Made by a program: the position numbers and the translations under genes. A stretch of DNA of 56,815 nucleotides from a virus. Taxonomy: Duplodnaviria; Caudoviricetes. Below, in pieces: positions 28,480 to 44,609 of this stretch; position 1 is the first letter of the stretch; the number at the start of each line of letters is the position of its first letter. A model generated the notes under the pieces. The model was not told the DNA's origin. It worked only from the letters and a program-made list of their open reading frames with translations, and did not search any database. The DNA is taken from positions 1 to 56,815 of IMG/VR virus record IMGVR_UViG_3300009678_000009; one strand, written 5' to 3'.

Positions 28480-28863
28480 TCAAGACTCTGATAATAACAC
28501 AAACGCAATACCTTTGTCATCTCCCTCAACTATTGCATATTTTTTTACTTTCTTGCTACCATCTGCGTTTGTAATATTGATGCAAAACTCATTTCCTATA
28601 CGCACCTCGCAACACACAGAGCCATCAGCGAGATACAGTCTAGTGAAAATGAGGTTTTTGTCCTTATCATAAAAGTGTGAGACGGCGACGCCTTTGTCTT
28701 TTAATAGCTTTTTTTCGCGCCACGAGTTTATTGTTTCCATAACAAGTAAAGTGCAAACAATGCCTATTACGTACTTGCCAACGTACTTGCTAGAACAGCA
28801 AAGCCACACAAGAAAAAAAATCACTGCTAATTCGCCGCACAGAACGACAATTTTGTTCACCAT
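28480..28863 (-). CDS. Membrane protein (2 N-terminal TM segments)
   Basis: Two hydrophobic stretches at the N-terminus; ATTATTT-ATG start. Confidence 0.6.
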   Translation of the reverse strand: MVNKIVVLCGELAVIFFLVWLCCSSKYVGKYVIGIVCTLLVMETINSWREKKLLKDKGVAVSHFYDKDKNLIFTRLYLADGSVCCEVRIGNEFCINITNADGSKKVKKYAIVEGDDKGIAFVLLSES

Positions 28864-29393
28864 AAATAATAATTTTTAAAAAATTGTACACACCTTGCAA
28901 GCCAAGTAGGTTTTGCTGGAGGTTTTGCTGGAGGGTATTTTGGCTCAATAAGCACTGATTCAAGCATACTAACTCCTTTTGGCGAGAACTCATCGTACAT
29001 ACCGTAGAAAATTATGATTATCTTGCAAGGTTGGTATTCCTCTCTAAAATATGTAGTGAAGTGTGTAGTAAACATAGGCAACAATGTCTCATAATGCCTT
29101 TTGTCCCAAACTTTCACCTTTATGAGGAACTCCCCACAAGTCACCACCTCTGTCCAGTCGTCTGGGTGTGCTGGTCTGAGTTGTAGTACAGGCATACGGC
29201 TTGCGTAGAGTCGCTCTCTTACTTCTCTGGCACTGTCAACGTCAACAATCCAATCAAACACTCCATCACGCCAAGACTTCGTTCGCTCGTCCATAAAATC
29301 AGTCATAACGTCGTTGTATATGTCGGTTATATGCCCGTAAGTTCCGCCAAATACACCATCTGCTTTAAACAACTTAGCATAAGCCCTTACCAT
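28857..29393 (-). CDS. Hypothetical protein
   Basis: 178 aa; linker-type start ATAGATTATTT-ATG. Confidence 0.65.
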   Translation of the reverse strand: MVRAYAKLFKADGVFGGTYGHITDIYNDVMTDFMDERTKSWRDGVFDWIVDVDSAREVRERLYASRMPVLQLRPAHPDDWTEVVTCGEFLIKVKVWDKRHYETLLPMFTTHFTTYFREEYQPCKIIIIFYGMYDEFSPKGVSMLESVLIEPKYPPAKPPAKPTWLARCVQFFKNYYLW

Positions 29394-29400
29394 AAATAAT

Positions 29401-29685
29401 CTATCTTATTTTCTTTGTCCCTTTGCAACTATTGCATTGGCAGGCTTTGGTTGTTACAAGCACTAGAAACTTGCCACCGCCTCCATTACTTTTTTTGTGT
29501 AGCACATTTACCAGCTCCGCCCCATCGTCTTCTAGTATCTGGATAAACATTCCTTTTGATATGCCAGACGCGGGAGAAAAACTCTCATTTGGTAGCCCAA
29601 AAAGTATACAATATATCTTATAGCGATACAAATACACTACACAGGTGCTAAACGCCAAGCCAATTAAAAATCCGATTGTTATCAT
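29401..29685 (-). CDS. Small membrane protein
   Basis: N-terminal TM segment; C-terminal CQCNSC; linker start. Confidence 0.6.
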   Translation of the reverse strand: MITIGFLIGLAFSTCVVYLYRYKIYCILFGLPNESFSPASGISKGMFIQILEDDGAELVNVLHKKSNGGGGKFLVLVTTKACQCNSCKGTKKIR

Positions 29686-29697
29686 AAAATCTCTATC

Positions 29698-30021
29698 TTA
29701 TTTGGTTAATGCGTTGTAAACTGCGTTGTAAACATCCATAGCCTTGCCACGAGCCTTACCAGCCTTCAACAAAGCCTTCCGTTTAGCCTTCCGTTTAGCC
29801 TTATCAGCCCTAACACAAGCCTTAACATAATCGTCATAAGCCTTATCACTAACCTGCTTTGCGTTGTAAACATCCATAGCCTTCAAGTATTCGTCCCACG
29901 CCCTAACACAAGCCCCACCAGCCCAAACACAAGCCTCACCAGCCCTAACACAAGCCTTAACATAAGCCTTATCAGCCTTATCACTGGCTTGCTTTGCCTT
30001 GTCAATTTCACTGTTATCCAT
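29698..30021 (-). CDS. Lys/Ala-rich helical protein, MDNSxI paralog family
   Basis: AAGGCT-rich internal repeats; ends LTK* inside the linker. Confidence 0.6.
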   Translation of the reverse strand: MDNSEIDKAKQASDKADKAYVKACVRAGEACVWAGGACVRAWDEYLKAMDVYNAKQVSDKAYDDYVKACVRADKAKRKAKRKALLKAGKARGKAMDVYNAVYNALTK

Positions 30022-30125
30022 AAATAATCTATACGCTTAGTTAATACATCAGCAACTAGTTTTGCCAGTTGCACCTTTGCGTCTTCAACTGCCTTTTCGT
30101 GCAATTCTTTTTCTTTGTCGTTCAT
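29883..30125 (-). CDS. Small hypothetical protein reading through a degenerate linker
   Basis: The linker near 30037 lacks 4 bp, so the LTK frame runs on (LTKRIDYLW) and overlaps the next gene. Confidence 0.4.
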   Translation of the reverse strand: MNDKEKELHEKAVEDAKVQLAKLVADVLTKRIDYLWITVKLTRQSKPVIRLIRLMLRLVLGLVRLVFGLVGLVLGRGTNT

Positions 30126-30129
30126 GTAA

Positions 30130-30483
30130 TCACTCTATTACATCTAAATCAGTTGCTCGTTTTGCTAGCCACTCCTTCTCTTCTTTTGCCATCTCGCGAA
30201 CTCTGTAGTGAGTATCCATCGCCAGAGCGTTAAGCTGCTCCAGTGAGAGCTTTTGGTTTCTTATCGTAGTCACGCGAACATACCAGTACTGACTTGCCAA
30301 CAAAGCGTCTATATGAGCAGGAGATAGCCCTTGCTTCGTTGCTAAGGCAACGAGACGAACAAAATCACCTTCCTTAATCACGTTATCAAACCCTTCTGGC
30401 GATGGATTTTTATTTTTCGGTGCGGCGGGAAGCGGTGTCGTTGCGCAACCTGAAAACAAGCCACATTGTTTAGTCATACTCAT
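30130..30483 (-). CDS. Protein with LRV/HEAT-like repeats
   Basis: DFVR, WYVR and LAMDTHYRVR spaced about 24 aa apart. Confidence 0.55.
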   Translation of the reverse strand: MSMTKQCGLFSGCATTPLPAAPKNKNPSPEGFDNVIKEGDFVRLVALATKQGLSPAHIDALLASQYWYVRVTTIRNQKLSLEQLNALAMDTHYRVREMAKEEKEWLAKRATDLDVIE

Positions 30484-30492
30484 AAAATCAAG

Positions 30493-30873
30493 TTAAATTA
30501 AGTTTTGGGTATTGACACAAAGAACTAGGTTTTTAAGCTGTCTGCTATTGACAATCTGCTCGTATCGTTTACGTGTTCTTATTCTGCCTTCTGTAACCAA
30601 CGTTGTTAGAAGACTTGAGACTACCAAAGATAGTTTTAAGTTTGCCAATTTGGCAACCTGCACACCTAAATCATACACATTTTTTGAAGTCCAATATAAC
30701 CTCCTGGTTGCGAAATTGTGAAAGCAAAATGCACAATCATTTGTACAGTATGGTGTCCTATACTCAAAGTACCCTAAATATTTGTGTCCTATGATGCATC
30801 TTACTGTAGCATATTTGTTTGTGCCTTCTACACTCAAAAGGCTCGATAGCTCGGTACGCATTTTCTGTTTCAT
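30493..30873 (-). CDS. Hypothetical protein
   Basis: 126 aa ORF in the array. Confidence 0.55.
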   Translation of the reverse strand: MKQKMRTELSSLLSVEGTNKYATVRCIIGHKYLGYFEYRTPYCTNDCAFCFHNFATRRLYWTSKNVYDLGVQVAKLANLKLSLVVSSLLTTLVTEGRIRTRKRYEQIVNSRQLKNLVLCVNTQNLI

Positions 30874-30894
30874 ATATAAAAATTACTATATTAT

Positions 30895-31458
30895 TTAAAC
30901 CGCTTGAACGTTTGTCGTCTGTATCCATTCGTGCCTCTCTACGCTGTTGAAAGTTGTATGGGCATAAGAGCCGTCAGGTTGAATTGTAATGTGGTCAAAG
31001 CCATTGCCAACATCACCGCTAACCTTTGAGGCGTACAGCATTGTTTGCGGAATTGTCTGCCCCATATCAAGGCAGGTCAAGCCAACGCGCGCCGCTGAGC
31101 CAATGGCAAACCGAGTGTTTACATCTGCTATTTCACAAACACTACAGAGGCGAAATAATCTACCCTGCTGGGCTATTAGAAAAGAGCCGTATTCCGAGGC
31201 GGTAGAAAGAGGGATGCTAAGGCTTTTATAAAACATCATCCCAAAATCAACGACATCGATTACGTCCTTAAATTTGGGGCTATGTTCCTGCACGGCAGAA
31301 AGGAAATACTGTGCAAAATCAGCATTTCCAGAACCAACAACAAACGTGCCTTCGTGAATAAAAAACTTGCTAAACGGATCGCCGTGCGAATTAGTAAGCA
31401 ACCTATCGGAAGCCAGCTCTATTGTGTCTCCATTCTTGATGCCTATACACAATGTCAT
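30895..31458 (-). CDS. Ntn-hydrolase, proteasome-beta/HslV-like peptidase
   Basis: N-terminal MT (Thr1 nucleophile) LCIG..LASD, K near residue 30, VGSG, FAIGS. Confidence 0.7.
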   Translation of the reverse strand: MTLCIGIKNGDTIELASDRLLTNSHGDPFSKFFIHEGTFVVGSGNADFAQYFLSAVQEHSPKFKDVIDVVDFGMMFYKSLSIPLSTASEYGSFLIAQQGRLFRLCSVCEIADVNTRFAIGSAARVGLTCLDMGQTIPQTMLYASKVSGDVGNGFDHITIQPDGSYAHTTFNSVERHEWIQTTNVQAV

Positions 31459-31481
31459 AAAATCTCTATCCGCTTAGTTGG

Positions 31482-32147
31482 TTAATACATCATCTCAACA
31501 TCTCTTTCGGCTGCAAGTTTAACACAAGCTAATATTGTGCTCGGCAATGTTTTAAAACTGCCACTCGACAGAGAATTAATTATTTCCAAAACGATCCTCT
31601 TGAGCGCACGAACCCTTATCTTGCTACGTTTCCAATCCACCGCAACATCCCAAAAGTCACGTTCATTTTCTGCCTTGTGTGCCTGTAGTGCTTTAATCAA
31701 GTAATTCACCTCGTAAACCAAAGCTTCCTTGTGATATTGCTTCCAAGGCTCCCAAGGCTCGTAAGGACGTAAGACATTCTTCTTCCAAAACTCAAACGCC
31801 TCATCGTTTTTAAACTCGGCAATCAGAGATGATAAAACACTTTGATACTCAATTTTAAAAGCTGCCGAGACCTCGTTAAGTCCTCTAATTTTTTTGTTGT
31901 TATATTTCTCATAACGCTCATCAAACATCCTGCGAAATTTCTTATTCAAAGCCGTTTCTACTTTTCTAGCACTCGCAAGCCTACGCTCAAGAGCTTCTAG
32001 CTCAAGCTCGTCATTAAAAAACAACAAAAAATCCTCTTCATGGTTAAGACGCATTGCGTTTTTAAGTTTGGTTGTGCAATCTTCCAGCTCACTCTCAGCC
32101 CATAACAGCCTCCGCTTGAATCTGGCTAGCTCAATGTTGAAATTCAT
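31482..32147 (-). CDS. Helical hypothetical protein
   Basis: 221 aa; first gene after palindromic promoter A1. Confidence 0.65.
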   Translation of the reverse strand: MNFNIELARFKRRLLWAESELEDCTTKLKNAMRLNHEEDFLLFFNDELELEALERRLASARKVETALNKKFRRMFDERYEKYNNKKIRGLNEVSAAFKIEYQSVLSSLIAEFKNDEAFEFWKKNVLRPYEPWEPWKQYHKEALVYEVNYLIKALQAHKAENERDFWDVAVDWKRSKIRVRALKRIVLEIINSLSSGSFKTLPSTILACVKLAAERDVEMMY

Positions 32148-32186
32148 AAATAATCTATCCGCTTAGTTGGTTAATACACAGACAAG

Positions 32187-32222
32187 CTACTATATCAGTA
32201 TAGCACTATACTGATATAGTAG
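32187..32222 (-). promoter_or_regulatory. 36-bp perfect palindrome overlapping a sigma70-like promoter (copy A1)
   Basis: CTACTATATCAGTATAG-CA-CTATACTGATATAGTAG; minus strand reads TTGACT-N18-TATACT with TGn. Confidence 0.8.
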
Positions 32223-32603
32223 TCAAGTGATTTTTTGCAGTTTTTTAATATCTGCGCACAGAAAATATACCATACTATCGCCAAGTGGCTTGTAAGTGGT
32301 GGCTTTAAGCTTGCGTGGGTCTATATTGTGTTCTCTTTTAACATCACGTTGGCGAAGCCAACTGCTGGCGTTGTTCATCATACCTGCACTAATAGAACTC
32401 CTTCCGTGCAATTTGATACACTTTTTTTTGTACTGCACGGCGTCCGCCTTGTTCCAGTATTTAATTCCAAAGCGACGCCACTCAACTGTGCATGTCCTTA
32501 TTGACGATAGATGCATATGTTCTTGTTTACGGATGACTGATTGCTTCAGCAACAAGAACGCAGCTAACTCTGCTGTGTTAAAATATTCTTCTTTATTTAT
32601 CAT
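32223..32603 (-). CDS. Putative HTH (excisionase/MerR-like) DNA-binding protein
   Basis: YFNTAELAAFL..K...YWNKADA pattern; ATG 32603; stop lies inside the -35 of element A1. Confidence 0.45.
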   Translation of the reverse strand: MINKEEYFNTAELAAFLLLKQSVIRKQEHMHLSSIRTCTVEWRRFGIKYWNKADAVQYKKKCIKLHGRSSISAGMMNNASSWLRQRDVKREHNIDPRKLKATTYKPLGDSMVYFLCADIKKLQKIT

Positions 32604-32620
32604 AAACGCGTCTGTATTAG

Positions 32621-32932
32621 TTAACTGTGCCAAAATTCCGCCACGCCAAGACCATAGCTCTCGTACACTTGCCTTATTATCCTTTTTGAATACCAAGCGT
32701 ATATTTCGCCACCTAATTTTTGGCACAAAGCCGCAAATATGTTATCCATTTCTGCGTATAGCTCCTTTATGATGCTTTCATCTACTACCTCCTTATGACC
32801 TGTGGCTGTGTTATATGATACTTCACAGCCTTCTTCGGCACTATACCTCAACAGTATTTCTACACCGCAAATTTCTATCAGTATGTGTATGTCCGCTATG
32901 TTGCAATCTAGTATCTTAAGCTTCTTTTTCAT
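32621..32932 (-). CDS. Hypothetical protein (N-terminus shared with 39992..40336)
   Basis: MKKKLKILD compared with MKKTKIKILD. Confidence 0.55.
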   Translation of the reverse strand: MKKKLKILDCNIADIHILIEICGVEILLRYSAEEGCEVSYNTATGHKEVVDESIIKELYAEMDNIFAALCQKLGGEIYAWYSKRIIRQVYESYGLGVAEFWHS

Positions 32933-33018
32933 AAACGCGTCTCTATAATCTCTGTAATGTTGCAGTATTCGCAGTTGCAGTCGGTGTAGTATTCGCAGGT
33001 GCAGTAAGTTGTTGCCAT
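32929..33018 (-). CDS. 29-aa Cys-rich micro-peptide (MATTYCTCEYYTDCNCEYCNITEIIETRL)
   Basis: Hand-translated; preceded by a linker-type start; stop overlaps the next ATG (ATGA). Confidence 0.55.
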   Translation of the reverse strand: MATTYCTCEYYTDCNCEYCNITEIIETRL

Positions 33019-33040
33019 AAAATTACTATATTATTTATTG

Positions 33041-33283
33041 TTAATCCACTGCAGGTATATCCTTCATCATAGCCTCCTCAAAAGCCATCCTATATTCAGC
33101 CCAAGCCTCCTCATAGACATCTATAACCTTCTCATAAGCATCTCTTGCCTCTATAAACGGTCGAAAATTCTCGCCTGTTTGCCCTACCGCTTTAACCTTC
33201 TCATAAGCAACCTTAGCCTCAAAAGCCCTCTCGCCAAGCTGCTTTACCTTGTCTAAAGCTCTTTCAATTTTACTGTTATCCAT
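33041..33283 (-). CDS. MDNSKI paralog family helical protein
   Basis: Shared N-terminus and upstream linker. Confidence 0.65.
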   Translation of the reverse strand: MDNSKIERALDKVKQLGERAFEAKVAYEKVKAVGQTGENFRPFIEARDAYEKVIDVYEEAWAEYRMAFEEAMMKDIPAVD

Positions 33284-33295
33284 AAATAATCTATA

Positions 33296-34366
33296 TTAGT
33301 TATTGTTAATCCACTTCAAATATTCACACTTCGTATTGCACTCCATTGAAATCGCCCTGCCTTCTTTAATACACTGCTGCAGGTCTTCACACCCTTTTTC
33401 CAGTAGCAAGGAAGCCGTCTTATATCTAAGTCTCCTCCTGTATTTCCCATCAGCCCTCAAGCCAAGGCTGGGTGTTAGGAGTAGGTCTTTCGTTTCGCAT
33501 CTATACAACCACATATAGTCATTCGCATACTTTACCACTGCATCTATAGGCAGATTTTCGTATCTGCTGCTTAATTTTATTCTAGTTATGCAACGACTAG
33601 ACGGTTTAACCAACTCCTTAGCTACCTCCTCACCACGGCAGAACCTGATAGAAAGCTCTTTACTGTTGTCTAATGCGTACAATCCGATTTCTCCCTCAGG
33701 GTGGTTGAACTCGTGTCCAAAATCAAAGGGACATCCTAAGTTGTCATAGTAATGTCTCATTAGCTCAAGATGACTTAGACGCATAAGCATCACATCGCCA
33801 TCGTAAATCTCAGCCCCTTTCTCATTGCACTCCCTTGTAGGCACAAACAACGCTAAGCAGACTGGGTGTTCCGTGTCGCTAAACATCTTAGTGCTAAGCA
33901 GAATGTAAGCATACAACCTATCTCTAAACAGCCCAGAGTTTAAAAAGGACGCTGGAAGTATCGCTGCTACATACTTGCAGTTCTTCAAGCAGAGAGACAA
34001 CGACAATTTCCACAGGTCGTCATATTTTGTGTTTGGAAATGGCAAGCCACGGCTTGTAGCAGAAGATTTTGACAAGTAAGGAGGATTTGTAATGCAAACA
34101 TCAAACCCAGCTGGGAAGTCTGCTATGGTGTCTCTGGTAGTGACGTGTGTATACGCATCGGCAGGCGGATTTATATCATACCCAACCCAGCCCCCTGTAC
34201 AACCTTCTAGAAGAGCTGGAAGGTTGCCAGCCCCTGCGAACGGTTCTAGCACGGTAGCGCTTTGCAAGTCGCACTCTTTCGCCCAAAGCTCAAACTCCTC
34301 ATGGTTGAAGGGGTTGCCAGTGGTGTAAAACTCGCCGTTAGCCCGCTTTTGGTTTGCTTTTTTCAT
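33296..34366 (-). CDS. N6-adenine/N4-cytosine DNA methyltransferase (gamma-like motif order)
   Basis: GEFYT, VLEPFAGAG, GYDI, ITNPPY. Confidence 0.85.
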   Translation of the reverse strand: MKKANQKRANGEFYTTGNPFNHEEFELWAKECDLQSATVLEPFAGAGNLPALLEGCTGGWVGYDINPPADAYTHVTTRDTIADFPAGFDVCITNPPYLSKSSATSRGLPFPNTKYDDLWKLSLSLCLKNCKYVAAILPASFLNSGLFRDRLYAYILLSTKMFSDTEHPVCLALFVPTRECNEKGAEIYDGDVMLMRLSHLELMRHYYDNLGCPFDFGHEFNHPEGEIGLYALDNSKELSIRFCRGEEVAKELVKPSSRCITRIKLSSRYENLPIDAVVKYANDYMWLYRCETKDLLLTPSLGLRADGKYRRRLRYKTASLLLEKGCEDLQQCIKEGRAISMECNTKCEYLKWINNN

Positions 34367-34378
34367 AACGTCTTTATA

Positions 34379-34861
34379 TTATTTGACTTGTTTAGTAAAC
34401 TTCACTTGATGCTTTAAACTGCCATCAAGCATTAAAGCACACATCCATACGTATCTGCTCGTCTGCACCAAAAGGCTTATGAGCATCCCATTAACTACCA
34501 CAGAGGCTAGCGCTGGCGCTTCTGTAAAATCATACATACGAATACCTGCAAGCACTAAGGCAAGACGTGTAGGGTTTAGAGAAAAACATGAAAATCTAGT
34601 CAGCAGCCTGCGGTGTTCCTCCGTTTCAAGCAATCTATTGATTATAAAGTGCTTGCTATCCGTAGTTAGGATTACGACGCGACTTACGCTAATTGAAACA
34701 AAAACGTACATAGAAAAACTGTAGATATGTTCTGGGTCAAGACACTCTAAGCCTTTAAACATAAGCTGGAGTGCGATGGCTATTATGAAACTTACTCCGC
34801 CTGCATAATCCTGTAGATAACGCACACTTTTGGTCTTTAAGCTTGATTTTTTGGTCTTCAT
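34379..34861 (-). CDS. Multi-pass membrane protein
   Basis: 3-4 hydrophobic segments. Confidence 0.55.
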   Translation of the reverse strand: MKTKKSSLKTKSVRYLQDYAGGVSFIIAIALQLMFKGLECLDPEHIYSFSMYVFVSISVSRVVILTTDSKHFIINRLLETEEHRRLLTRFSCFSLNPTRLALVLAGIRMYDFTEAPALASVVVNGMLISLLVQTSRYVWMCALMLDGSLKHQVKFTKQVK

Positions 34862-34873
34862 AAAATTACTGTA

Positions 34874-35227
34874 TTATTTACTGAATAATTTAACCAAATC
34901 AATTTCAATATGTTTCCCACTCTTCCTAAGGCTAGGGTTGTCTATCTGCCTCTGCACTTCCTCCCCTACTATTCTCAAGGCTTCTAAAGACAGTGGCTCT
35001 ATGTTAGTTGGTTTAATCAAACCACCAAACGTAATGTCTAGTGGCTCTGTCCATATCTTGCCTGTTATGGTGTAATATGCCGCCATCAAATCTGCTTCAA
35101 CCTTCCTAATTAATTTATTCTCACTATCGTCCGCATAAGCACTTTTGTAGCAGTCAATAGTATTTATCAGTGCTTGCATCTCGCACACCAAAGCCAACAG
35201 CCTTTTTTCTATCGTATCCTTAATCAT
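34874..35227 (-). CDS. Hypothetical protein
   Basis: 117 aa ORF in the array. Confidence 0.6.
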   Translation of the reverse strand: MIKDTIEKRLLALVCEMQALINTIDCYKSAYADDSENKLIRKVEADLMAAYYTITGKIWTEPLDITFGGLIKPTNIEPLSLEALRIVGEEVQRQIDNPSLRKSGKHIEIDLVKLFSK

Positions 35228-35258
35228 ATATTACATCCATCTTATCTTATTTGCCAAA

Positions 35259-36263
35259 CTACCCTATTGCACCGTACACCTTCATCACCATTGCAGGCAT
35301 CACTGCATTCCCAAGCTGTTTATAGCCTGAAGCCCCTTCTGATATAATGTGAGTGTCAGGAAAGGTCATAAGCCTCTTGCACTCCGTATGCGATAGCGTT
35401 CTTACTACCGGCTTTTTGCCACTCACGTCATAATAAAGCCCTGTCTTCGCGCCCCAGCCACCACCTTGAGACAGTAGAGTCACTGCAGATTGCGCCATAC
35501 TGTAAATCCTCATTCCTTGGCTTGTGCTACCGCCTATGCCGCCCAGACGTTCAGGTTTCGTAAGATAGCCGTCCCACTCTCTCGGTACTTCAAACTTGCG
35601 TTTCACCTGTTCCAAGTCTTCCGCGGACATTTTGCTGGTCAAGTCCTTTTCTGTTCCATCGGGGCAACGTATGTCAAACACGCTTTTTTGATTGCGATTG
35701 CTCCTTCCGCCAAGCTTGCCCCAGTTTACTGATAACGTCTCCTTTTCGCCAAGCTTTGCATCATTACGAATACACACAACATAAAGACGCTTCCTACACT
35801 GCGTTAATCCATAGTCAAGAGAGTTAAGAACTTTATAATATACACTATAGCCTTCAGGCGCAATGCTGCATTTTAAATCTGTCTCTATGTCGTGGAATAT
35901 CCTACCGCCTGCAATCTTTAGCAAGTTTGGCACATTCTCTAGTAGTATAATCTTTGGCTTATGGTATTTAGCTATGCGTATCACCTCATACCATAGCGCC
36001 CCCCTAGGATCATCCAAACCGCCTCGCTTGCCACAAACGCTAAAAGACTGACACGGAAAGCCTGCGCATAGAACGTCGTGTGGAGGTATGCGAGAGGATT
36101 CTATTTGCGTGATGTCCCCAGCTGGGGTGATGCCAAAGTTTGCCCTATACACATCTCTCGCCTTTTCGTCAATGTCGCACGCAAACACACACTCCATACC
36201 TTGCCTTGCCATCGCAATGTGAAAGCCTCCTATTCCGCAGAAAAGGTCTACAAAAGTTGCCAT
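35259..36263 (-). CDS. DNA (cytosine-5)-methyltransferase
   Basis: DLFCGIGG, GDI, AGFPCQSFS, ENV, QCRKR, RLMTFPD, QLGNAV. Confidence 0.95.
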   Translation of the reverse strand: MATFVDLFCGIGGFHIAMARQGMECVFACDIDEKARDVYRANFGITPAGDITQIESSRIPPHDVLCAGFPCQSFSVCGKRGGLDDPRGALWYEVIRIAKYHKPKIILLENVPNLLKIAGGRIFHDIETDLKCSIAPEGYSVYYKVLNSLDYGLTQCRKRLYVVCIRNDAKLGEKETLSVNWGKLGGRSNRNQKSVFDIRCPDGTEKDLTSKMSAEDLEQVKRKFEVPREWDGYLTKPERLGGIGGSTSQGMRIYSMAQSAVTLLSQGGGWGAKTGLYYDVSGKKPVVRTLSHTECKRLMTFPDTHIISEGASGYKQLGNAVMPAMVMKVYGAIG

Positions 36264-36283
36264 AAAATTACTATCTTATTTGG

Positions 36284-36502
36284 TTAATACGTGAGAGCCT
36301 TATCAGCATCGTCCAATTCATCGTAAGCCTCGTCCAAAGCCCTGCTAGCCTTATTGTAAGCATTGCTTGCGTTCTCAAAATCCCCCCTAGCCTTCGCACA
36401 AGCCTCTACACAAGTGTTCACAGCCTGCTTTGCTTTCTCAAGTCTTGTAGCTTCCAAACCTTGCTTTGCCTTCTCAAAGCTTATAATTTTACTGCTATCC
36501 AT
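36284..36502 (-). CDS. MDSSKI paralog family helical protein
   Basis: Shared N-terminus; linkers on both sides. Confidence 0.6.
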   Translation of the reverse strand: MDSSKIISFEKAKQGLEATRLEKAKQAVNTCVEACAKARGDFENASNAYNKASRALDEAYDELDDADKALTY

Positions 36503-36509
36503 AAATAAT

Positions 36510-36824
36510 CTATCCGCTTAGTTGGTTAATAAATGCTGTACTCTTGTATATTTCAGTCATACACACCTCGCAAGCTCTGGAGTTAAGCCTACTCTCGGAC
36601 TGATTGCACATATTAATGCACGCGTCAAACGCTCGCTTTTTCTGTTTAAAAGCTAGTTCCATAGTCAGCATCTCCTCGCTTTTTGTACTCTGCACGGCGT
36701 CAAAGTGCCTTGTGAGCAGTAGCGTCAAACATAAAATAGATGTTGCCAAAGACAAAAGTGCTATTGTCGTATAAGTCCAAAAACCGATTTTCATATACTT
36801 TTGACATACGTACATACTACTCAT
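36510..36824 (-). CDS. Membrane-anchored Cys-rich protein (paralog of 39662..39928)
   Basis: MYVCQKYMKIGFWTYT, TM segment, CxxxC..CxxC; ends NQLSG* inside the linker. Confidence 0.65.
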   Translation of the reverse strand: MSSMYVCQKYMKIGFWTYTTIALLSLATSILCLTLLLTRHFDAVQSTKSEEMLTMELAFKQKKRAFDACINMCNQSESRLNSRACEVCMTEIYKSTAFINQLSG

Positions 36825-36836
36825 AAAATCTCTATA

Positions 36837-36965
36837 TTATTTGGTTAATATATCATCCTTGTCCTTCTCTTCAGCCAGCAAAGCGTCTCTAGCTTTTACA
36901 GCATCATAAGCCTTTAGCCAAGCCCTAAAAGTCATACCTGCGCTTTCAATTTTACTGCTATCCAT
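36837..36965 (-). CDS. 42-aa MDSSKI paralog
   Basis: Hand-translated MDSSKIESAGMTFRAWLKAYDAVKARDALLAEEKDKDDILTK*; bounded by two linkers. Confidence 0.6.
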   Translation of the reverse strand: MDSSKIESAGMTFRAWLKAYDAVKARDALLAEEKDKDDILTK

Positions 36966-36977
36966 AAATAATCTATA

Positions 36978-37382
36978 TTATTTGGTTAATTGTTGCGGTT
37001 TAAGAACTTTATCCTCCTCTTGGTTGCGGCGCTGAACGTTCCCATCACTATCTAGTAAGCAAGCTTCAATAGTAAACCTCACTTCCAGCTCCTCGTCTGC
37101 AAAAAATTTCGCGTTATCTTTCAACAGAAAGTCTATAGCGCTAAACACTTCTTCTAACATCTTGTCCGCCTGTTCCGCGTAATCCCAACGAGAGTTGCCA
37201 GTGTGGCATCTCGTTGACATACCAACAAAAGCTAAGCTTATCGCCACATTAGGTTCGTGTGCAAAGCTTGCTACAGAGGCTCGCATATTCTTGCTACTCC
37301 ATACGCCGTTGTTCAATACGTCTAGTTCCCTAGAGACTACACCAAGTAGACGCGTTAGTGTCTGTAGTTTTGTAGTTGTCAT
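36978..37382 (-). CDS. Hypothetical protein
   Basis: 134 aa; ends LTK* in the linker; first gene after element A2. Confidence 0.6.
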   Translation of the reverse strand: MTTTKLQTLTRLLGVVSRELDVLNNGVWSSKNMRASVASFAHEPNVAISLAFVGMSTRCHTGNSRWDYAEQADKMLEEVFSAIDFLLKDNAKFFADEELEVRFTIEACLLDSDGNVQRRNQEEDKVLKPQQLTK

Positions 37383-37409
37383 ATATAAAATTAGATTAAG
37401 TTGTTAGGT

Positions 37410-37445
37410 CTACTATATCAGTATAGCACTATACTGATATAGTAG
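37410..37445 (-). promoter_or_regulatory. 36-bp palindromic promoter element, copy A2
   Basis: Identical to A1. Confidence 0.8.
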
Positions 37446-37485
37446 TCAAGTGATTTTTTATTTTTATTTGGTTAATACATCCTCC

Positions 37486-38214
37486 TTAGCCGTTCTGCAA
37501 TGGCTCGCCCAAAAACGCCTCTATAATCATCCTAAGCCTTCTCACAATCTGCTCTGCATTCATCCCCTCTACGGACTTCTCTGTCGCAAACTTCTTTGCT
37601 GCAATTCGCAGAATATCATCATCATCCTCGTTAGTCAACAACCTTTCAATTTGCTCTGCATTCATTACGTTTGCGAACTTCTCCACTGCAATTTGCAGAA
37701 CACCACTATCCTCATCAGTCAACGACCTTTCAATTTGCTCTGCATTCATTACGTTTGCGAACGTCTCTATTGCAATTCGCCGAACACCACTCTCCTCATC
37801 AGTCAACGACCTTTCAATCTGCTCTGCATTCATTACGCTTGCGAGCCCCATTATTGCAATTCGCCGATGAGCCCAATAATCGGCAGTCAACAACCTTTCA
37901 ATTTGCTCTGCATTCATTACGTTTGCGAACTTCTCCACTGCAATTTGCAGAACACCACTATCCTCATCAGTCAACGACCTTTCAATCTGCTTTTTGTTCA
38001 TTACTTCTGCGAACTTCTCCACTGCAATTTGCCGAGTGCTCCAAGCCTCATCAGTCAATGCCCTTTCAATCTGCTCTGCATTCATTACTTCTGCGAACTT
38101 CTCCACTGCATCTTGCCGATGACCCCAACAATTGGCAGTCAATGCCCTTTCAATCTGCTTTTTGTCAACTGACTCTATTTTTGGTGGCTCTTCACCATCG
38201 CATCTTGAACACAT
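37486..38214 (-). CDS. HEAT-like repeat protein (7 x 28 aa)
   Basis: QIER.LT........IAVEKFA.VMN units; 84-bp DNA period. Confidence 0.8.
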   Translation of the reverse strand: MCSRCDGEEPPKIESVDKKQIERALTANCWGHRQDAVEKFAEVMNAEQIERALTDEAWSTRQIAVEKFAEVMNKKQIERSLTDEDSGVLQIAVEKFANVMNAEQIERLLTADYWAHRRIAIMGLASVMNAEQIERSLTDEESGVRRIAIETFANVMNAEQIERSLTDEDSGVLQIAVEKFANVMNAEQIERLLTNEDDDDILRIAAKKFATEKSVEGMNAEQIVRRLRMIIEAFLGEPLQNG

Positions 38215-38317
38215 ATATAATCTATATTAGTTGGTTAATCAATCTCTCTACACCACAAGCAAAGCCGACAACAGCTTGCTTAACCGCTTATTTGATTATT
38301 ACGCCTGCACAGACAAG

Positions 38318-38353
38318 CTACTATATCAGTATAGTGCTATACTGATATAGTAG
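38318..38353 (-). promoter_or_regulatory. 36-bp palindromic promoter element, copy A3 (centre TG instead of CA)
   Basis: CTACTATATCAGTATAG-TG-CTATACTGATATAGTAG. Confidence 0.8.
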
Positions 38354-38368
38354 TCAAGTGATTTTTTA

Positions 38369-38929
38369 TTAAAACGGACTAGTCTCGACTAAACAGTTCG
38401 CTACGAGCCTTTGGATTACGTCTATCTCCAGCTTGCAACCAGCAACGTTCCATCCATAGCATAGCCTTTCTGCGATGGCTTGCACAAGCTCGGGCGTAAA
38501 GACCGCTTTATCGTTTATTTTGTTTTTAGCCTCACGCACCACAAGGTTGTTGTTATATAGCTCGAGATACACCTCCAAGACAACGTCGTCTTCCATTTCC
38601 ACATAACTTCCTGCCGCTATTTGCGTGAAAGGGTCTGCTTCCGCCTTAGTGTTCCTTTCTGTAATGCGGTTATCGTATATGCTTACATGGCTACTCGTAG
38701 AACAGCTATCGTGCGTTATTTCAACCATACCACAAGCAACTACTTTGTAATGCTTGTTCACAATCGCTGGTTGTTGCAGTGCAAGATTTGCCTTATCGCA
38801 AGCATCCTTAGCATCCAAAGCCTTCTCTAAATCATCTAAAGCCTTCTTACAAACTCTCCTAGCATTCTGATAAGCCTCTCTAGCCTTATCTAAAGCCTGC
38901 TTTGCCTTGTCAATTTTACTGTTATTCAT
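38369..38929 (-). CDS. MNNSKI paralog fused to an unrelated C-terminal domain
   Basis: First ~50 aa are KA-rich family sequence, the remainder is different. Confidence 0.65.
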   Translation of the reverse strand: MNNSKIDKAKQALDKAREAYQNARRVCKKALDDLEKALDAKDACDKANLALQQPAIVNKHYKVVACGMVEITHDSCSTSSHVSIYDNRITERNTKAEADPFTQIAAGSYVEMEDDVVLEVYLELYNNNLVVREAKNKINDKAVFTPELVQAIAERLCYGWNVAGCKLEIDVIQRLVANCLVETSPF

Positions 38930-38944
38930 AAATAATCTATACGC

Positions 38945-39310
38945 TTAGTTGGTTAATACATTTTCGCCATCGATAAGCTTCACAACTTCGATAAGCTTCA
39001 CAATTGCGCACAAATCCATAGTCGCTCCGCGCCTTAATCTTCTGTTGGCTTCCTGCCTGTCTTGCCAATGTCCAGTCCTTATTTCATACTCTGAGACGGG
39101 GCGAGAGCCAGCTAACATTAACAGTTCGCAACAGTCGGTTAGATTTTCTATAGTGTCAGCAATGTCAGTCTCTGCACTCGCCTTCTTCAGCGCTTCCCTA
39201 ACGCCTGCAGTCGCTAATCCCAGTACGCCCTTAAGCTCTTCATCCTCCAACAATCCGTGTAAAATGGCTTTAGCATCTTCTATAAGCCTTTGTGATTTTT
39301 CGTTTATCAT
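38945..39310 (-). CDS. Hypothetical protein
   Basis: 121 aa; ends LTN* in the linker. Confidence 0.6.
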   Translation of the reverse strand: MINEKSQRLIEDAKAILHGLLEDEELKGVLGLATAGVREALKKASAETDIADTIENLTDCCELLMLAGSRPVSEYEIRTGHWQDRQEANRRLRRGATMDLCAIVKLIEVVKLIDGENVLTN

Positions 39311-39346
39311 AAATAATCTATCTTATTTGGTTAATACAATTTACTC

Positions 39347-39649
39347 TTACTCATCTACCGTATCAGCATCAAAAGATATGCTTACACTCTCTACGCCACT
39401 GTTCTGCAGCATTGCTCTTTGCACAGTGGCAAGAAACTCCTCTATGCTGCTTGTTTTAAAATTCCAATCTCTAGCTAGGCTGTCGAGAGATTCACCAATG
39501 CGCCACATTTCTTTACTTTCCATCTCCGAGCCGTACCCCATGAAGTCCGCTCCCTTAAAGCAAAAACCTCTTGTGTCGCCAAATTCCAAAATACACTCTG
39601 TCCCGTATAGGAGAAAGTCTATTCTCATATGTTTTATTGCGATGCACAT
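39347..39649 (-). CDS. Hypothetical protein
   Basis: 100 aa; linker-type start. Confidence 0.55.
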   Translation of the reverse strand: MCIAIKHMRIDFLLYGTECILEFGDTRGFCFKGADFMGYGSEMESKEMWRIGESLDSLARDWNFKTSSIEEFLATVQRAMLQNSGVESVSISFDADTVDE

Positions 39650-39661
39650 AAAATCTCTATA

Positions 39662-39928
39662 TTACTTAACAAATTCAGTTACGCAAATCTTGCAAAACTC
39701 TGTGTCAAGCCTTGCCGCCGTGGCGGCTGAGCATATGTCCATACACCTTTTAAGACGTTGCTTTCTATGCTGCAATTCTGCGCTTTCCACGCTTAGCGGA
39801 CACTCAAAGTGCCTTGTGTGCAGTAGCGTTAAGCAACAAACGGCACTTGTCAGGGACAAGATTGCTATCGCTGTGTAAGTCCAAAAACCGATTTTCATAT
39901 ACTTTTGACATACGTACATATTTGCCAT
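39662..39928 (-). CDS. Membrane-anchored Cys-rich protein (paralog of 36510..36824)
   Basis: Near-identical N-terminal DNA and protein sequence. Confidence 0.65.
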   Translation of the reverse strand: MANMYVCQKYMKIGFWTYTAIAILSLTSAVCCLTLLHTRHFECPLSVESAELQHRKQRLKRCMDICSAATAARLDTEFCKICVTEFVK

Positions 39929-39948
39929 AAAATCTCTATCTTATTTGG

Positions 39949-39984
39949 TTAAAAAATTGCATACACCTTGCGAGCAAATATCAT
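39949..39984 (-). pseudogene. 11-codon mini-cassette (MIFARKVYAIF) between two linkers
   Basis: 24/27 nt match to the 3' part of gene 28857..29393 (28876-28902), read in another frame. Confidence 0.45.
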
Positions 39985-39991
39985 AAATAAT

Positions 39992-40336
39992 CTATCTTAT
40001 TTGGTTAAAATGTTCCACGTGGAACATTCGGTGAAAGTCCTCGCTGCGTTGGTTCGCTTCTAAGAACCGTTGATACTCCGCGTCTCTGCACTTTTGGTAC
40101 AAAGCCACCACATCTTTATCATACCCTACGTTGCGTTTGCGTAATACATCTATAACCTCAACCACTGTGGTCGTGCCAAACATCAGACGTTGACCGTTAA
40201 TTTCGCAGTAAGCCTCGCTGGTGCAGAAGCACAGGTCGGCTCTTTCACCATCCCTTGTGAAATCTACCAGCATTATTAAATCTTTGCCATCTACACGTGG
40301 ATAGCTATCTAGTATCTTTATTTTTGTCTTTTTCAT
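39992..40336 (-). CDS. Hypothetical protein; 3' end contains a parS site
   Basis: Ends MFHVEH-FNQIR*, i.e. parS followed by the linker. Confidence 0.6.
   Translation of the reverse strand: MKKTKIKILDSYPRVDGKDLIMLVDFTRDGERADLCFCTSEAYCEINGQRLMFGTTTVVEVIDVLRKRNVGYDKDVVALYQKCRDAEYQRFLEANQRSEDFHRMFHVEHFNQIR
40011..40026. promoter_or_regulatory. parS: parS (ParB-binding centromere) site
   Basis: TGTTCCACGTGGAACA perfect palindrome; fits the bacterial chromosomal parS consensus. Confidence 0.8.
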
Positions 40337-40356
40337 AAAATCACTATCTTATTTGG

Positions 40357-40986
40357 TTAATACATTCTTGCCATTTGTGCATCCCTCCACAGTGTGTCGC
40401 TTTCTATTACTGCACGGTTGAAAGCGCCTTTTCTGTTCTTGCCATTTGGTACTCGCACCCATTCCATACACAAATCCGATATCGCCGCGTTCCGCTCAAT
40501 CATAAACCACAGAACTTGCCTTTTCAATCTTGCACGCCCAGAGTTGTAGACTCTAGATAGCAAAGGCGCAATAAGCTCTGGTCTCTCCTCCAGCACAATT
40601 CTTGCGCTTTCTTGTGATAGAAGCCAAGCTAAGTCATCATATACCCTATTCATAACTTCCATCACTGCGTCGTCTTTCGTAATACGCATAGTTAAAGCTT
40701 TCGTGCCATACCCTATACTCACCCTGCAATCGGCTTCGCTGGCTTCTGTGCCTTTGCAGTCTGCGTAAGCTTGCGGCTTAAACCCTTCCACTTTCATAAT
40801 AAGCAAAACCGCGTCAGCAAATCTGTGTTCAAGGTTTGGAATCTCCGCCGCCCTTGCTGGTCTTGCAGAGGCTAGCAATATCACACCTAATATCACTCCA
40901 GTGAAGCTAAAACCGCATGACTTGCGTAAAAATGCAAAGCCTACACCCAGCAACAACATTGCTGGCAAAATTAAAGAAAAAAACAT
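40357..40986 (-). CDS. Lysozyme (GH24/T4-like) with N-terminal hydrophobic/signal segments
   Basis: EGFKPQAYAD (E-x8-D), SIGYG, YNSG, C-terminal NRA.E; two hydrophobic helices then ARA|A. Confidence 0.75.
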   Translation of the reverse strand: MFFSLILPAMLLLGVGFAFLRKSCGFSFTGVILGVILLASARPARAAEIPNLEHRFADAVLLIMKVEGFKPQAYADCKGTEASEADCRVSIGYGTKALTMRITKDDAVMEVMNRVYDDLAWLLSQESARIVLEERPELIAPLLSRVYNSGRARLKRQVLWFMIERNAAISDLCMEWVRVPNGKNRKGAFNRAVIESDTLWRDAQMARMY

Positions 40987-41018
40987 AAATAATCTATCTT
41001 AAAAGTTAATCGTCAAAA

Positions 41019-41063
41019 GCTTACACAGCGTCCAAAGGGGTGCGTAATGGACGCTGTGTAAGC
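41019..41063 (-). terminator. Stem-loop with U tail upstream of lysozyme
   Basis: 16-bp perfect arms GCTTACACAGCGTCCA / TGGACGCTGTGTAAGC; TTTT follows on the minus strand. Confidence 0.65.
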
Positions 41064-41071
41064 GTTCAATG

Positions 41072-41269
41072 TTAAACGTCTGTTTCGTCGCAAAGAGAAA
41101 CAAGCTGTTCTTCAAGTATGCTCGCTTCGTATTTCAATAGCTTTATTTGGCTTTTGAAGGTTTTTATGTTAGGTCTTGGACTGCCGCTAAAATCCGACTC
41201 AGCCAAAAGACCACGCAATTTTTCTAAGGTTTGCTCAATCCTGTTAAGAAGTTTGGTATTTTCAATCAT
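41072..41269 (-). CDS. Small coiled-coil hypothetical protein
   Basis: 65 aa; TATTT-ATG start. Confidence 0.55.
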   Translation of the reverse strand: MIENTKLLNRIEQTLEKLRGLLAESDFSGSPRPNIKTFKSQIKLLKYEASILEEQLVSLCDETDV

Positions 41270-41303
41270 AAATAAATAGTAATCTAAATTGTTATCAACA
41301 AGT

Positions 41304-41357
41304 CTGCACAGACAAGCTACTATATCTATACTGACACAGTTATTCTATTAGTCAAAT
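41304..41357 (-). promoter_or_regulatory. Degenerate/chimeric promoter element (A-type left part, B-type -35 part)
   Basis: CTGCACAGACAAGCTACTATATC|TATACTGA (10-bp central deletion), then TCTATTAGTCAAAT. Confidence 0.55.
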
Positions 41358-41694
41358 GTTTTTTGTTTTTTCTAATTAATCTACGCCGCTCCTTGTCATT
41401 CATCTTTGCCAAGCGCCTGTTTTTTGCCTTGCGGTTGCGAATTGCTTTAGCTGGTAAAATATATACCCTTGAGCGTTTTTCGATTTCCTCCAAAGAAAAG
41501 CTATAACACTCTGTTAAATTACTTGTAGCAGGCGAAAAATGCGATAGCGAATCAGCGCTATCGTGGCTTGCAGAAAAAATCGCATCATATAAAGCGCCTT
41601 TGGTGCCAAGTAAAGTTGAGCAAGACCAGACGCGCTCTCTTCGTAAAATTTTACCGCTTTTTGCCGAAACCCTGTTAAAGTAAAAAATTGCCAT
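41326..41694 (-). CDS. Basic hypothetical protein
   Basis: 122 aa with K/R-rich C-terminus; linker start. Confidence 0.55.
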   Translation of the reverse strand: MAIFYFNRVSAKSGKILRRERVWSCSTLLGTKGALYDAIFSASHDSADSLSHFSPATSNLTECYSFSLEEIEKRSRVYILPAKAIRNRKAKNRRLAKMNDKERRRLIRKNKKHLTNRITVSV

Positions 41695-41718
41695 AAAATC
41701 TGCGTCTTATTTGGTTAA

Positions 41719-41745
41719 TAAGGGGCGCGTGGCACGCACCCCTTA
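41719..41745 (-). terminator. GC-rich hairpin in the leader after promoter A4
   Basis: Minus strand TAAGGGGTGCGT-GCC-ACGCGCCCCTTA with one U:G pair. Confidence 0.5.
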
Positions 41746-41788
41746 GCATTTTTTACATCCTTCTGGGCATCATTACTGCACAGACAAG

Positions 41789-41824
41789 CTACTATATCAG
41801 TATAGCACTATACTGATATAGTAG
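41789..41824 (-). promoter_or_regulatory. 36-bp palindromic promoter element, copy A4
   Basis: Identical to A1; flanks identical to A3 over about 75 bp. Confidence 0.8.
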
Positions 41825-41839
41825 TCAAGTGATTTTTTA

Positions 41840-43462: not shown

Positions 43463-43472
43463 AAAGAATGAA

Positions 43473-43541
43473 TATAAGTTGTTATATGTAGCTACAACAA
43501 TATAGTAGCTTGTTATTTCTATTAGTCAAATACTATTTTAA
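43473..43541 (-). promoter_or_regulatory. Repeated early-promoter element, copy B1
   Basis: 69-bp TATAAGTTGTTATATGTAGCTACAACAATATAGTAGCTTGTTATTTCTATTAGTCAAATACTATTTTAA; minus strand TTGACT-N16-TACTAT. Confidence 0.75.
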
Positions 43542-43579
43542 GATTTATTAATTTGTTTGGCTTCAACACCTGCACTGCA

Positions 43580-44104: not shown

Positions 44105-44120
44105 TGATCCACGTGGAACT
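44105..44120. promoter_or_regulatory. parS: Degenerate parS site
   Basis: TGATCCACGTGGAACT, 14/16 match to the perfect copies. Confidence 0.5.
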
Positions 44121-44517: not shown

Positions 44518-44537
44518 AGTTTGCCATAAAAAATGAA

Positions 44538-44606: not shown

Positions 44607-44609
44607 TAT

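Follow-up and report, generated by a model that had tools for sequence, protein, structure and literature searches.

A recurrent stop/start linker between the early accessory genes of an uncultivated phage, probably also used for gene exchange

The window analysed here is the whole of IMG/VR record IMGVR_UViG_3300009678_000009 (56,815 bp), the podovirus-like genome of an uncultivated phage, in which a short element, hereafter the linker, recurs at the gene junctions of a minus-strand array of small early genes. In our reading, which we consider rather probable, the linker is the common intercistronic junction of this early accessory-gene array, a stop/start leader that doubles as a site of short-homology recombination. 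Fifteen exact copies of its core, TTAACCAAMTAA, are present between 29698 and 41718, all of them on the minus strand, where 0.07 are expected (the mean of 100 dinucleotide shuffles, the largest count in any shuffle being 2). In a position-weight scan of both strands of the whole genome these 15 copies scored 18.5-29.8 bits and the next best sites 8-14 bits; count and scan together bore out the sequence-only reading made earlier of this DNA, which had described 15 exact cores and some degenerate copies at gene junctions of one strand. The strong sites are confined to 29.7-41.7 kb of the leftward early block, with none in the structural or replication genes.

The full element measures 27-30 nucleotides (nt) and consists of an optional ATGTA, TTAACCAAMTAA, an optional GCG, (G/T)ATAGA(T/G)(T/A)ATTTT and ATG. 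An ATG follows the core in 14 of the 15 copies, at +24 (n = 10) or +27 (n = 4), and the interval is occupied, again in 14 of 15, by the start module [GCG](G/T)ATAGA(T/G)(T/A)ATTTT; the exception is the core at 37475, next to which a hairpin promoter element stands instead of the start module. An ATGTA often stands directly before the core, and it is conserved whether the frame gives ..MY-stop or ..NVLTN-stop; what is conserved is therefore the nucleotide sequence, and the linker itself encodes the C-terminal tails. Two core subtypes can be distinguished, a C-type (n = 5, four of them with the GCG insertion) and an A-type (n = 10, none with GCG within the window); combined with the two types of start module (TTATTT or GATTTT), all four combinations are present.

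A metagenome scan with the full motif yielded four contigs, L111 to L114, which are 94-99.8% identical to the window over common blocks. The region is contained in 19 DNA sequencing runs, and contigs from four of these (X4, X5, X7 and X8) were compared; all the relatives come from a few related habitats (sediment and groundwater samples). The 15 sites with an exact core are the following, with lengths of genes in amino acids (aa) and with single-nucleotide polymorphisms (SNPs) and replacement events that are treated further below.

41692..41718, minus: canonical linker with A-type core and ATG at +24, before a 122-aa gene, downstream of a hairpin promoter and a GC-rich hairpin
40334..40360, minus: canonical linker; the upstream lysozyme-like gene ends in ..MY-stop at the +1 TAA
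39982..40008, minus: canonical linker; the upstream 114-aa gene ends in ..NQIR-stop at the +14 TAG, and the ATG opens an 11-codon relic open reading frame (ORF) only
39926..39952, minus: canonical linker before an 88-aa membrane-protein paralogue; the relic mini-ORF ends at the +1 TAA
39308..39334, minus: canonical linker; the L111 core has a C-to-T change, and the density of SNPs between L111 and the window increases from here
38927..38956, minus: canonical linker with C-type core and GCG, ATG at +27; the upstream gene ends in ..LTN-stop at the +9 TAA
38212..38238, minus: canonical linker before the HEAT-repeat gene; the extra HisRS-like gene of L111 ends in ..LINQLI-stop at its TAG
37464..37475, minus: core without start module, followed in the window by a hairpin promoter and in L112 and X8 by a start module, a 108-aa gene and a second linker (event B)
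36963..36989, minus: canonical linker; the upstream 134-aa gene ends in ..LTK-stop
36822..36848, minus: canonical linker; replacement C has its left breakpoint at the ATG, and contig L114 ends here
36500..36529, minus: canonical linker, C-type with GCG; right breakpoint of replacement C, at the first core base
36261..36287, minus: canonical linker before a C5 DNA methyltransferase gene; the upstream gene ends in ..TY-stop
32145..32174, minus: canonical linker directly downstream of a hairpin promoter, in its predicted 5' leader; the L113 orthologue has a different spacer
31456..31485, minus: canonical linker; the upstream 221-aa gene ends in ..MY-stop
29683..29709, minus: canonical linker in which event H, in X5, X7 and X8, has its right breakpoint (5' edge of the core)

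When the 26 gene starts of the array are compared with the consensus, 13 are at least 88% identical, seven are at 67-83% and six are at background; the 30 starts outside the array have a mean identity of 43% and a maximum of 62%. The seven intermediate sites are degenerate linkers:

40984..41010, minus: 75% of consensus, before the lysozyme-like gene
39647..39673, minus: 75%, start module exact and core lost
34859..34885, minus: 71%, within the two-gene insert of event D
34364..34390, minus: 67%, right end of event D, with a canonical core in L112 and L113
33281..33310, minus: 71%, before an 80-aa gene of the MDNSKI family
30019..30048, minus: 81%, core minus 3 nt, before a 107-aa MDNSEI gene that is missing in X5, X7 and X8
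29391..29417, minus: 83%, at the array's lower edge, preceding the 178-aa gene

In 9 of the 15 copies the upstream ORF terminates within the element, with three frames in use. The TAA at +1 produces ends in ..Y-stop (ORF ends 40357, 36284 and 31482; n = 3), the TAA at +9 ends in ..LTK-stop or ..LTN-stop (38945, 36978, 36837 and 29698; n = 4), and the TAG at +14 or +17 ends in ..NQIR-stop or ..NQLSG-stop (39992 and 36510; n = 2); all nine agree exactly with the linker-encoded gene ends that the sequence-only reading had listed for the three frames. Genes newly seen in the relatives also carry such tails, namely ..LLTN-stop, ..VITK-stop, ..LINQLI-stop and ..KLTK-stop. The earlier proposal of a three-frame-stop junction stands as regards its use, but a stop in every frame is not rare: it is present in 13% of random 27-mers of local composition, likewise in 13% of shuffles of the consensus, and also upstream of 7 of the 43 gene starts that have no linker. 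The feature is therefore used, yet statistically ordinary, and there is no need to regard it as designed. A keyword search of the open-access literature, supplements being outside its scope, returned no description of a three-frame-stop/start junction.

The 11-codon mini-ORF between the linkers at 40008 and 39952 also stops at +1. This ORF (39953-39984) resembles the 3' end of the 178-aa gene (28874-28901) in the pattern GC(T/A)..GCAAGGTGT.T.CAATTTTTTAA, and from this resemblance it looks like the stub of a deleted paralogue.

A second repeat family within the array has four copies of the form AAAAAATCAC-TTGACT-(18 nt)-TATACT, with an A-tract before the TTGACT, and a hairpin with 17-nt arms spans the promoter (-22.2 kcal/mol, z = -5.7). 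The TTGACT-18-TATACT part of these elements, which resemble the promoter-early stem-loop (PeSL) of T4-type phages, agrees with the sigma70 consensus at 10 of 12 positions.

41776..41850, minus: PeSL-like hairpin promoter, copy 1
38305..38379, minus: PeSL-like hairpin promoter, copy 2
37410..37462, minus: PeSL-like hairpin promoter, copy 3, with a linker-bounded gene in its place in L112 and X8
32171..32236, minus: PeSL-like hairpin promoter, copy 4

The sequence-only description of the array, right about the junctions, had overlooked these four elements. They divide the array, each of them preceding runs of linker-joined genes, and the linkers at 32174 and 41718 lie downstream of one. Because the linkers are placed between the hairpin promoters, and two of them downstream of one, we read them as probable intra-operon junctions or 5' leaders and not as promoters, that is, as shared intercistronic stop/start leaders inside operons. 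In the linkers themselves there is no hexamer pair at usable spacing, only 2 of the 15 having a weak TTAACC-17-TATGAT that overlaps the ATG; an informal inspection by eye showed no Bacteroidota-type promoter motif; and two linkers folded in context had no structure of their own (z = 0.08 and -0.11). According to passages of one preprint, a sigma70-like consensus is functional in the middle promoters of a phage with a Bacteroidota host (bioRxiv 10.1101/2020.03.07.982082). A GC-rich hairpin (41719-41745, minus strand; -20.5 kcal/mol, z = -2.9), followed by TTATT, separates the first linker from hairpin promoter 1 and is a possible attenuator or terminator.

It could still be argued that the linker is itself a phage-specific promoter, recognised by a phage RNA polymerase (RNAP) or a sigma-like factor and leaving each gene with a very short leader. 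Promoters of single-subunit RNAPs are highly conserved, asymmetric, about 20 nt long and placed on one strand just upstream of genes, and the linker, in front of many early genes, has all of these features; moreover, most ORFs have no known Pfam or PHROGs family, which leaves room for an unrecognised polymerase. We nevertheless find this very unlikely. No RNAP, sigma factor, integrase or recombinase family was found in the 50 window ORFs scanned with Pfam or the 20 scanned with PHROGs, several small ORFs being outside these scans, nor was a D.D.D motif found in the ORFs of 1168, 1202 and 2083 aa; this is the type of catalytic motif described for crAss-like virion RNAPs (bioRxiv 10.1101/2020.03.07.982082). 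Separate sigma70-like promoters already punctuate the array, the register of the linker to the ATG is fixed, with a 3-nt variant only, as is typical of a start region, and a linker is found in the predicted leader right after two of the hairpin promoters.

A third repeat family, of about 95 nt (TTGACT..GCTACATATAACAACTTATA..ATG), precedes the first three leftward genes; its leader would be very short, because the ATG is 8-9 nt past the -10-like TATATT.

43455-43554, minus: third repeat family
44520-44614, minus: third repeat family
44808-44910, minus: third repeat family

As to translation, GGAG, GAGG or AGGA is found at -20 to -4 before just 1 of the 56 gene starts of the genome and nowhere in the linker element, and gene starts are preceded by AT-rich, T-rich tracts. 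Since the genome is without Shine-Dalgarno (SD) sites, the linker must also solve the initiation of internal cistrons. In Bacteroidota, SD sequences are absent and initiation relies on low mRNA structure and on upstream bases, as described in PMC6847099. The calculated cost of opening the start region was 7.1 kcal/mol at 13 linker starts, 6.1 kcal/mol at 19 other starts and 11.6 kcal/mol at 150 random sites of the array; open start regions and unstructured linkers fit a role as leader in translation initiation. The linker stops are 10-26 nt before the ATG, and the other junctions of the block have a stop-to-start gap of 8-13 nt (ORF coordinates); judged by such spacing, termination-reinitiation at the linkers is plausible.

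Comparison of the window with its relatives revealed six events in which whole genes are gained, lost or replaced; breakpoints are called left or right as read along the direction of transcription.

Event A: a 331-aa HisRS-core gene (PF13393, 5e-27; 228-1223 of L111, minus) is present in L111, X4 and X8 and deleted in the window; left breakpoint in a degenerate linker, right breakpoint in coding sequence, 45 nt before core 38238
Event B: the hairpin promoter 37410-37462 is replaced by a start module, a 108-aa gene and a linker in L112 and X8; left breakpoint directly after the core, right breakpoint at the ATG
Event C: in L112 and X5 a HAD hydrolase gene and a 203-aa gene take the place of the 104-aa gene 36510-36824, the right end being seen also in X4 and X8; left breakpoint at the ATG, right breakpoint at the first core base
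Event D: a two-gene cassette (117 and 160 aa; 34378-35258, minus) of the window is replaced by one clean canonical linker in L112, L113, X5 and X8; both breakpoints in degenerate linker halves
Event G: in X8 the 203-aa gene is preceded directly by a canonical linker, the HAD gene being missing; both breakpoints in linkers
Event H: the 107-aa gene is missing in X5, X7 and X8, and the 117-aa gene ends in ..KLTK-stop in the linker at 29709; left breakpoint in coding sequence, right breakpoint at the 5' edge of the core

Aligning the relatives places 10 of the 12 breakpoints in linkers, both ends in events B, C, D and G and one end each in A and H. Under uniform placement the probability of such a result is P = 3e-11, the linkers making up 5.8% of the array. 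Events B, C, D and G show seamless canonical linkers at their junctions, free of scars and duplications, and the breakpoints fall within the element, at the boundary between core and spacer, at the first core base or at the ATG. Only junction contigs were used; the zero depth of X8 in the bin 34424-35007 was not taken as evidence. The HisRS-like cassette leaves no room for an anticodon-binding domain, because it has only 331 aa. As sites of gene gain, loss and shuffling, which is what the sequence-only reading had proposed, the linkers are supported by the four seamless events, and the proposal falls short in A and H, each with one coding end, and in the gene 31482-32147, the variation of which is off-linker.

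The differences among orthologous linkers are of the same kind, since these are either identical or different as a block: the spacer at 32174 differs between the window and L113, whose genomes are 99% identical, and the linker at 36529 differs together with its cassette. A single point change was observed, in one linker (39334 in L111), and the SNPs between L111 and the window number three between 41023 and 39380 and become dense past this linker. The coexistence of all four combinations of core and start module and the block-wise differences point, on sequence comparison, to exchange within linkers, and the canonical junctions look as if they were continually made by exchange and then decayed slowly. 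The graded decay and the point change suggest that selection on any single core is weak.

Several observations weigh against the reading preferred here. If only noncoding or linker positions are allowed, P for 10 of 12 rises to 0.04; linkers are 55% of the noncoding and linker sequence, and therefore selection for intact genes alone predicts many breakpoints in linkers. The coordinates of degenerate linkers in this test were set by hand, and the six events were chosen by the authors. In event G the fitted part of the X8 contig is perhaps about 30 nt, so that the upstream neighbour of the 203-aa gene is unsettled. The right breakpoint of A and the left one of H are in coding sequence. In a further case, event I, runs X4, X5 and X8 differ upstream of 40027, and homology begins at a palindrome 19 nt before the core at 40008. 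The gene 31482-32147 has internal replaced patches in X8 and X4, with at least four breakpoints unrelated to linkers, and outside the array L111 and all four runs lack the gene 44119-44517, which is located between two repeats of the third family, one end of the missing stretch being in the coding 3' end. SNPs cluster in patches within genes. Recombination therefore takes place outside linkers as well, and some deletions leave the 3' stub of a gene behind, as in the 11-codon relic ORF. No recombinase was identified. Finally, openness of the start region leaves the exact conservation of the 12-mer unexplained, and this conservation, beyond the plain need of a start region, could involve a trans-acting factor.

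Some of these points are what would be expected if illegitimate indels occurred anywhere and only those at junctions survived, the linkers being conserved for expression and having no mechanistic role. This account agrees with the modest P of 0.04 under the noncoding/linker null and with the coding-sequence ends without homology of events A, H and E (the last outside the array) and of the relic mini-ORF. It does not lead one to expect scar- and duplication-free canonical linkers at the junctions of B, C, D and G, breakpoints inside the element and not merely between genes, or the pattern of four combinations and the block replacement of orthologous linkers, which suggest exchange within the linker; we regard it as quite unlikely.

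The strict conservation of the core could also mark a regulon, if a phage or host factor bound or cleaved it and so switched an early accessory class of genes together, recombination being a by-product of the identity of the sites. The factor could be a translational regulator that binds RNA, an endoribonuclease or a small RNA. A 12-mer that is exact in 15 copies exceeds what an SD-less start region needs, the motif occurs in a single block of the leftward unit and in none of the replication and structural genes, and the same question is left open for the start-associated sequence (SAS) of mycobacteriophages in passages of PMC3203893. However, identity is down to 67-83% at seven junctions and to background at six, with the genes still intact, which suggests weak purifying selection per copy, and the point change in one L111 core likewise suggests weak purifying selection; no RNA-binding or nuclease candidate for the role was identified, and no sequence complementary to the core was found elsewhere in the genome. 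We judge a regulon tag to be unlikely.

With the linker read as a stop/start leader that is also a recombination site, the mechanism would be as follows. On the mRNA, it would be a leader, AU-rich and without structure, that guides ribosomes to the ATG, and any upstream ORF would terminate in it, because it has stops in all frames. On the DNA, it would be the sole homology between otherwise unrelated neighbouring genes, and therefore short-homology recombination between copies would delete, insert or replace promoterless genes and restore the junction; the partners may be copies in one genome or in co-infecting variants. New junctions would be canonical on arrival and later decay toward a generic AT-rich start region. 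A bolder version, which we regard as possible but doubtful, is that of a self-propagating universal junction: with a stop in every frame and an SD-independent start, it would allow bare ORFs to be captured, duplicated, discarded and reordered by short-homology recombination alone, as a recombinase-free counterpart of the integron, its sequence being kept mainly by its own recombination dynamics and not by the needs of expression.

The sequence-only reading had supposed that shuffling takes place without an integrase, in line with the Pfam and PHROGs scans described above, perhaps through a DUF2800-like nuclease together with a 288-aa protein. The family assignment of the nuclease proved real:

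25201..26307, minus: DUF2800 / PD-(D/E)XK exonuclease, candidate recombination nuclease

The 288-aa protein gave no Pfam or PHROGs family and no match in the Atlas, and its single-sequence AlphaFold model is unusable (predicted local distance difference test, pLDDT, of 31.5).

Other variation was noted in and near the array. A perfect 20-nt palindrome, AATGTTCCACGTGGAACATT (40009-40028, minus strand), which could fold as a hairpin of about -10 kcal/mol, stands directly upstream of the linker at 40008 and is the point at which homology to the window begins in event I. The HEAT-repeat gene (37486-38214, minus strand) is made of 84-nt (28-aa) tandem units; L111, L112 and L114 are about 93-96% identical to the window here, and several contigs end inside the gene, which suggests that it varies in repeat number or register. 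All four runs contain joints between opposite strands at 28891-29031 and 28978-29352, in the 178-aa gene 28857-29393, with 7-10 nt that fit both sides and the palindromic CTTGCAAG at two of the sites; these could reflect an invertible segment or an assembly artefact at inverted repeats. In L112, 102 nt of the 203-aa cassette gene (3521-3622) are 99% identical to 51491-51592 of the window, in the 698-aa structural gene 51115-53211; the segment is oriented alike relative to each gene, because the two genes are on opposite strands of the genome, and it could be a common or duplicated coding segment or the result of chimeric assembly.

The array also includes two paralogous families, in which DNA homology extends 50-150 nt from the linker into the genes and then ends. 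The first consists of five small Lys/Ala-rich proteins, probably helical, with the N-terminus MD(N/S)SKI or MNNSKI, and the second of two membrane proteins with the N-terminus M..MYVCQKYMK.

38369-38929, minus: Lys/Ala-rich paralogue
36837-36965, minus: Lys/Ala-rich paralogue
36284-36502, minus: Lys/Ala-rich paralogue
33041-33283, minus: Lys/Ala-rich paralogue
29698-30021, minus: Lys/Ala-rich paralogue
39662-39928, minus: membrane-protein paralogue
36510-36824, minus: membrane-protein paralogue

The assembly is judged complete, because positions 1-123 recur exactly at the genome end (56693-56815); this terminal overlap of 123 nt is either a terminal repeat or an artefact of circular assembly. 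The plus strand codes for a T7-type portal/adaptor, a TerL-like protein, a tail protein and three giant ORFs, which lie at the end of the structural block:

12724-18975, plus: giant ORF of 2083 aa
1551-5057, plus: giant ORF of 1168 aa
5119-8727, plus: giant ORF of 1202 aa

Among these three only the 1168-aa ORF has a family match, a weak one to the tail protein phrog_376 (4.4e-08); one guess is that the giant ORFs are ejected internal proteins. The minus-strand block extends from about 44.9 kb down to 19 kb. Besides a MORN-repeat protein and the array of about 26 small genes, it codes for three DNA methyltransferases and for nucleases and replication proteins (the DUF2800/PD-(D/E)XK exonuclease, a VRR-NUC nuclease, an SNF2-type helicase and a VapE/DUF5906 primase). 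No tRNA gene was found in the genome, and no Rfam family at the gathering score.

From these sequence searches the phage lineage appears to be extremely isolated. The portal protein matched only itself among 5.8 billion clusters, and TerL, among 1.84 billion representatives, matched one other cluster (25% identity), the remaining matches being limited to its C-terminal nuclease part. The tblastn matches of TerL were limited to Vibrio phages (23-24% identity, 57% of the query covered), and the helicase reached 28-30%; a helicase scan of viral contigs yielded no relative, and megablast of 29000-42000 against phage records gave no match. The strict linker motif is absent from the viral-contig and genome-contig collections, and a looser 17-base pattern gave single, apparently random matches in viral contigs (among the 80 matches listed of at least 110). 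For the HisRS-core cassette, the nearest matches in species genomes are Rickettsiales and other alphaproteobacterial metagenome-assembled genomes (35-47% identity, 11 of the 12 loci L115-L126); this affinity may be a weak hint to the host or to a gene donor, and it fits poorly with the Bacteroidota-like absence of SD sequences.

It is an old question whether phages gain and lose accessory genes by homologous exchange at linkers or by illegitimate recombination followed by selection. The array is a compact natural test case, since it contains a junction of 27-30 nt in at least 15 copies, with whole-gene differences among coexisting variants at these junctions. For an uncultivated phage, such evidence from populations is unusually direct. 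The nearest known systems are the PeSL and SAS elements, which the sequence-only reading had named as loose precedents, and the linker belongs to neither. According to passages of PMC3203893, the SAS of Cluster K mycobacteriophages is a short asymmetric repeat, a few bases before gene starts and nearly always in one orientation, that occurs in the non-structural half of the genome, mostly with ATG, before unrelated gene families and sometimes with the upstream stop inside; its function is unproven and is thought to concern translation initiation. The linker is similar in that it adjoins the ATG in 14 of 15 copies, is on one strand in 15 of 15, serves non-structural genes only and contains upstream stops. 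In contrast with the SAS as described in those passages, which is 13 bp long and carries an AGGAG Shine-Dalgarno core, the linker has no GGAG, GAGG or AGGA and is conserved over 24-30 nt right up to the ATG; it has no counterpart of the inverted-repeat extension of the SAS (ESAS), and its variants break at the element, whereas the same passages of PMC3203893 do not tie the SAS to indel breakpoints. If our reading is true, it would suggest a testable evolutionary role for SAS-like start motifs.

In T4-type phages, PeSL elements are early promoters of sigma70-like type whose stem-loop lies between the boxes or over them, found in a hyperplastic region of small ORFan genes (passages of PMC2839356). 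They span from the upstream stop to the downstream start, the ends of indels and replacements fall in the repeats, and recombination between copies was proposed; promoter, terminator and mini-circles have been demonstrated experimentally (passages of PMC2839356 and PMC4122927). The linkers too are in an array of small genes, and the breakpoints of close relatives are in the repeats (10 of 12), and the four hairpin promoters of the array, known here from sequence alone, fit the PeSL as it is described in those passages. The linkers, however, are without promoter or stem-loop and measure about 27-30 nt, against about 100 bp for the PeSL according to the same passages. Being short and promoterless, they would therefore join promoterless genes inside operons, unlike the PeSL. 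If this is true, modular shuffling of the PeSL type would extend from promoter-terminator cassettes to promoterless intercistronic leaders, and the linker could have a use in design, as a minimal junction for building and swapping genes in SD-independent hosts.

Two other systems are less close. In lambdoid phages, short conserved sequences at gene boundaries were proposed as exchange sites between unrelated modules; they are sporadic and differ from junction to junction, whereas here a single sequence, with both stop and start signals, is present in no fewer than 15 copies within 12 kb. In integrons, the tyrosine recombinase IntI acts on attC sites, imperfect palindromes that fold as single strands, and promoterless cassettes share a common promoter. 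The array is similar in being a one-strand series of mostly promoterless unrelated genes with a recurrent junction at which whole genes are gained and lost; it differs in that no tyrosine recombinase was found in the scanned ORFs, the linker core is not palindromic and does not fold, the linker includes the start codon of the next gene, and the host element is a lytic-type phage genome. "Integron-like", the term of the sequence-only reading, is hence an analogy only, as no IntI was found and the linkers have no attC-like fold. By analogy, the linker is best described as a hybrid that combines a SAS-like start motif with PeSL-like modular shuffling, a concept that has precedents in both.

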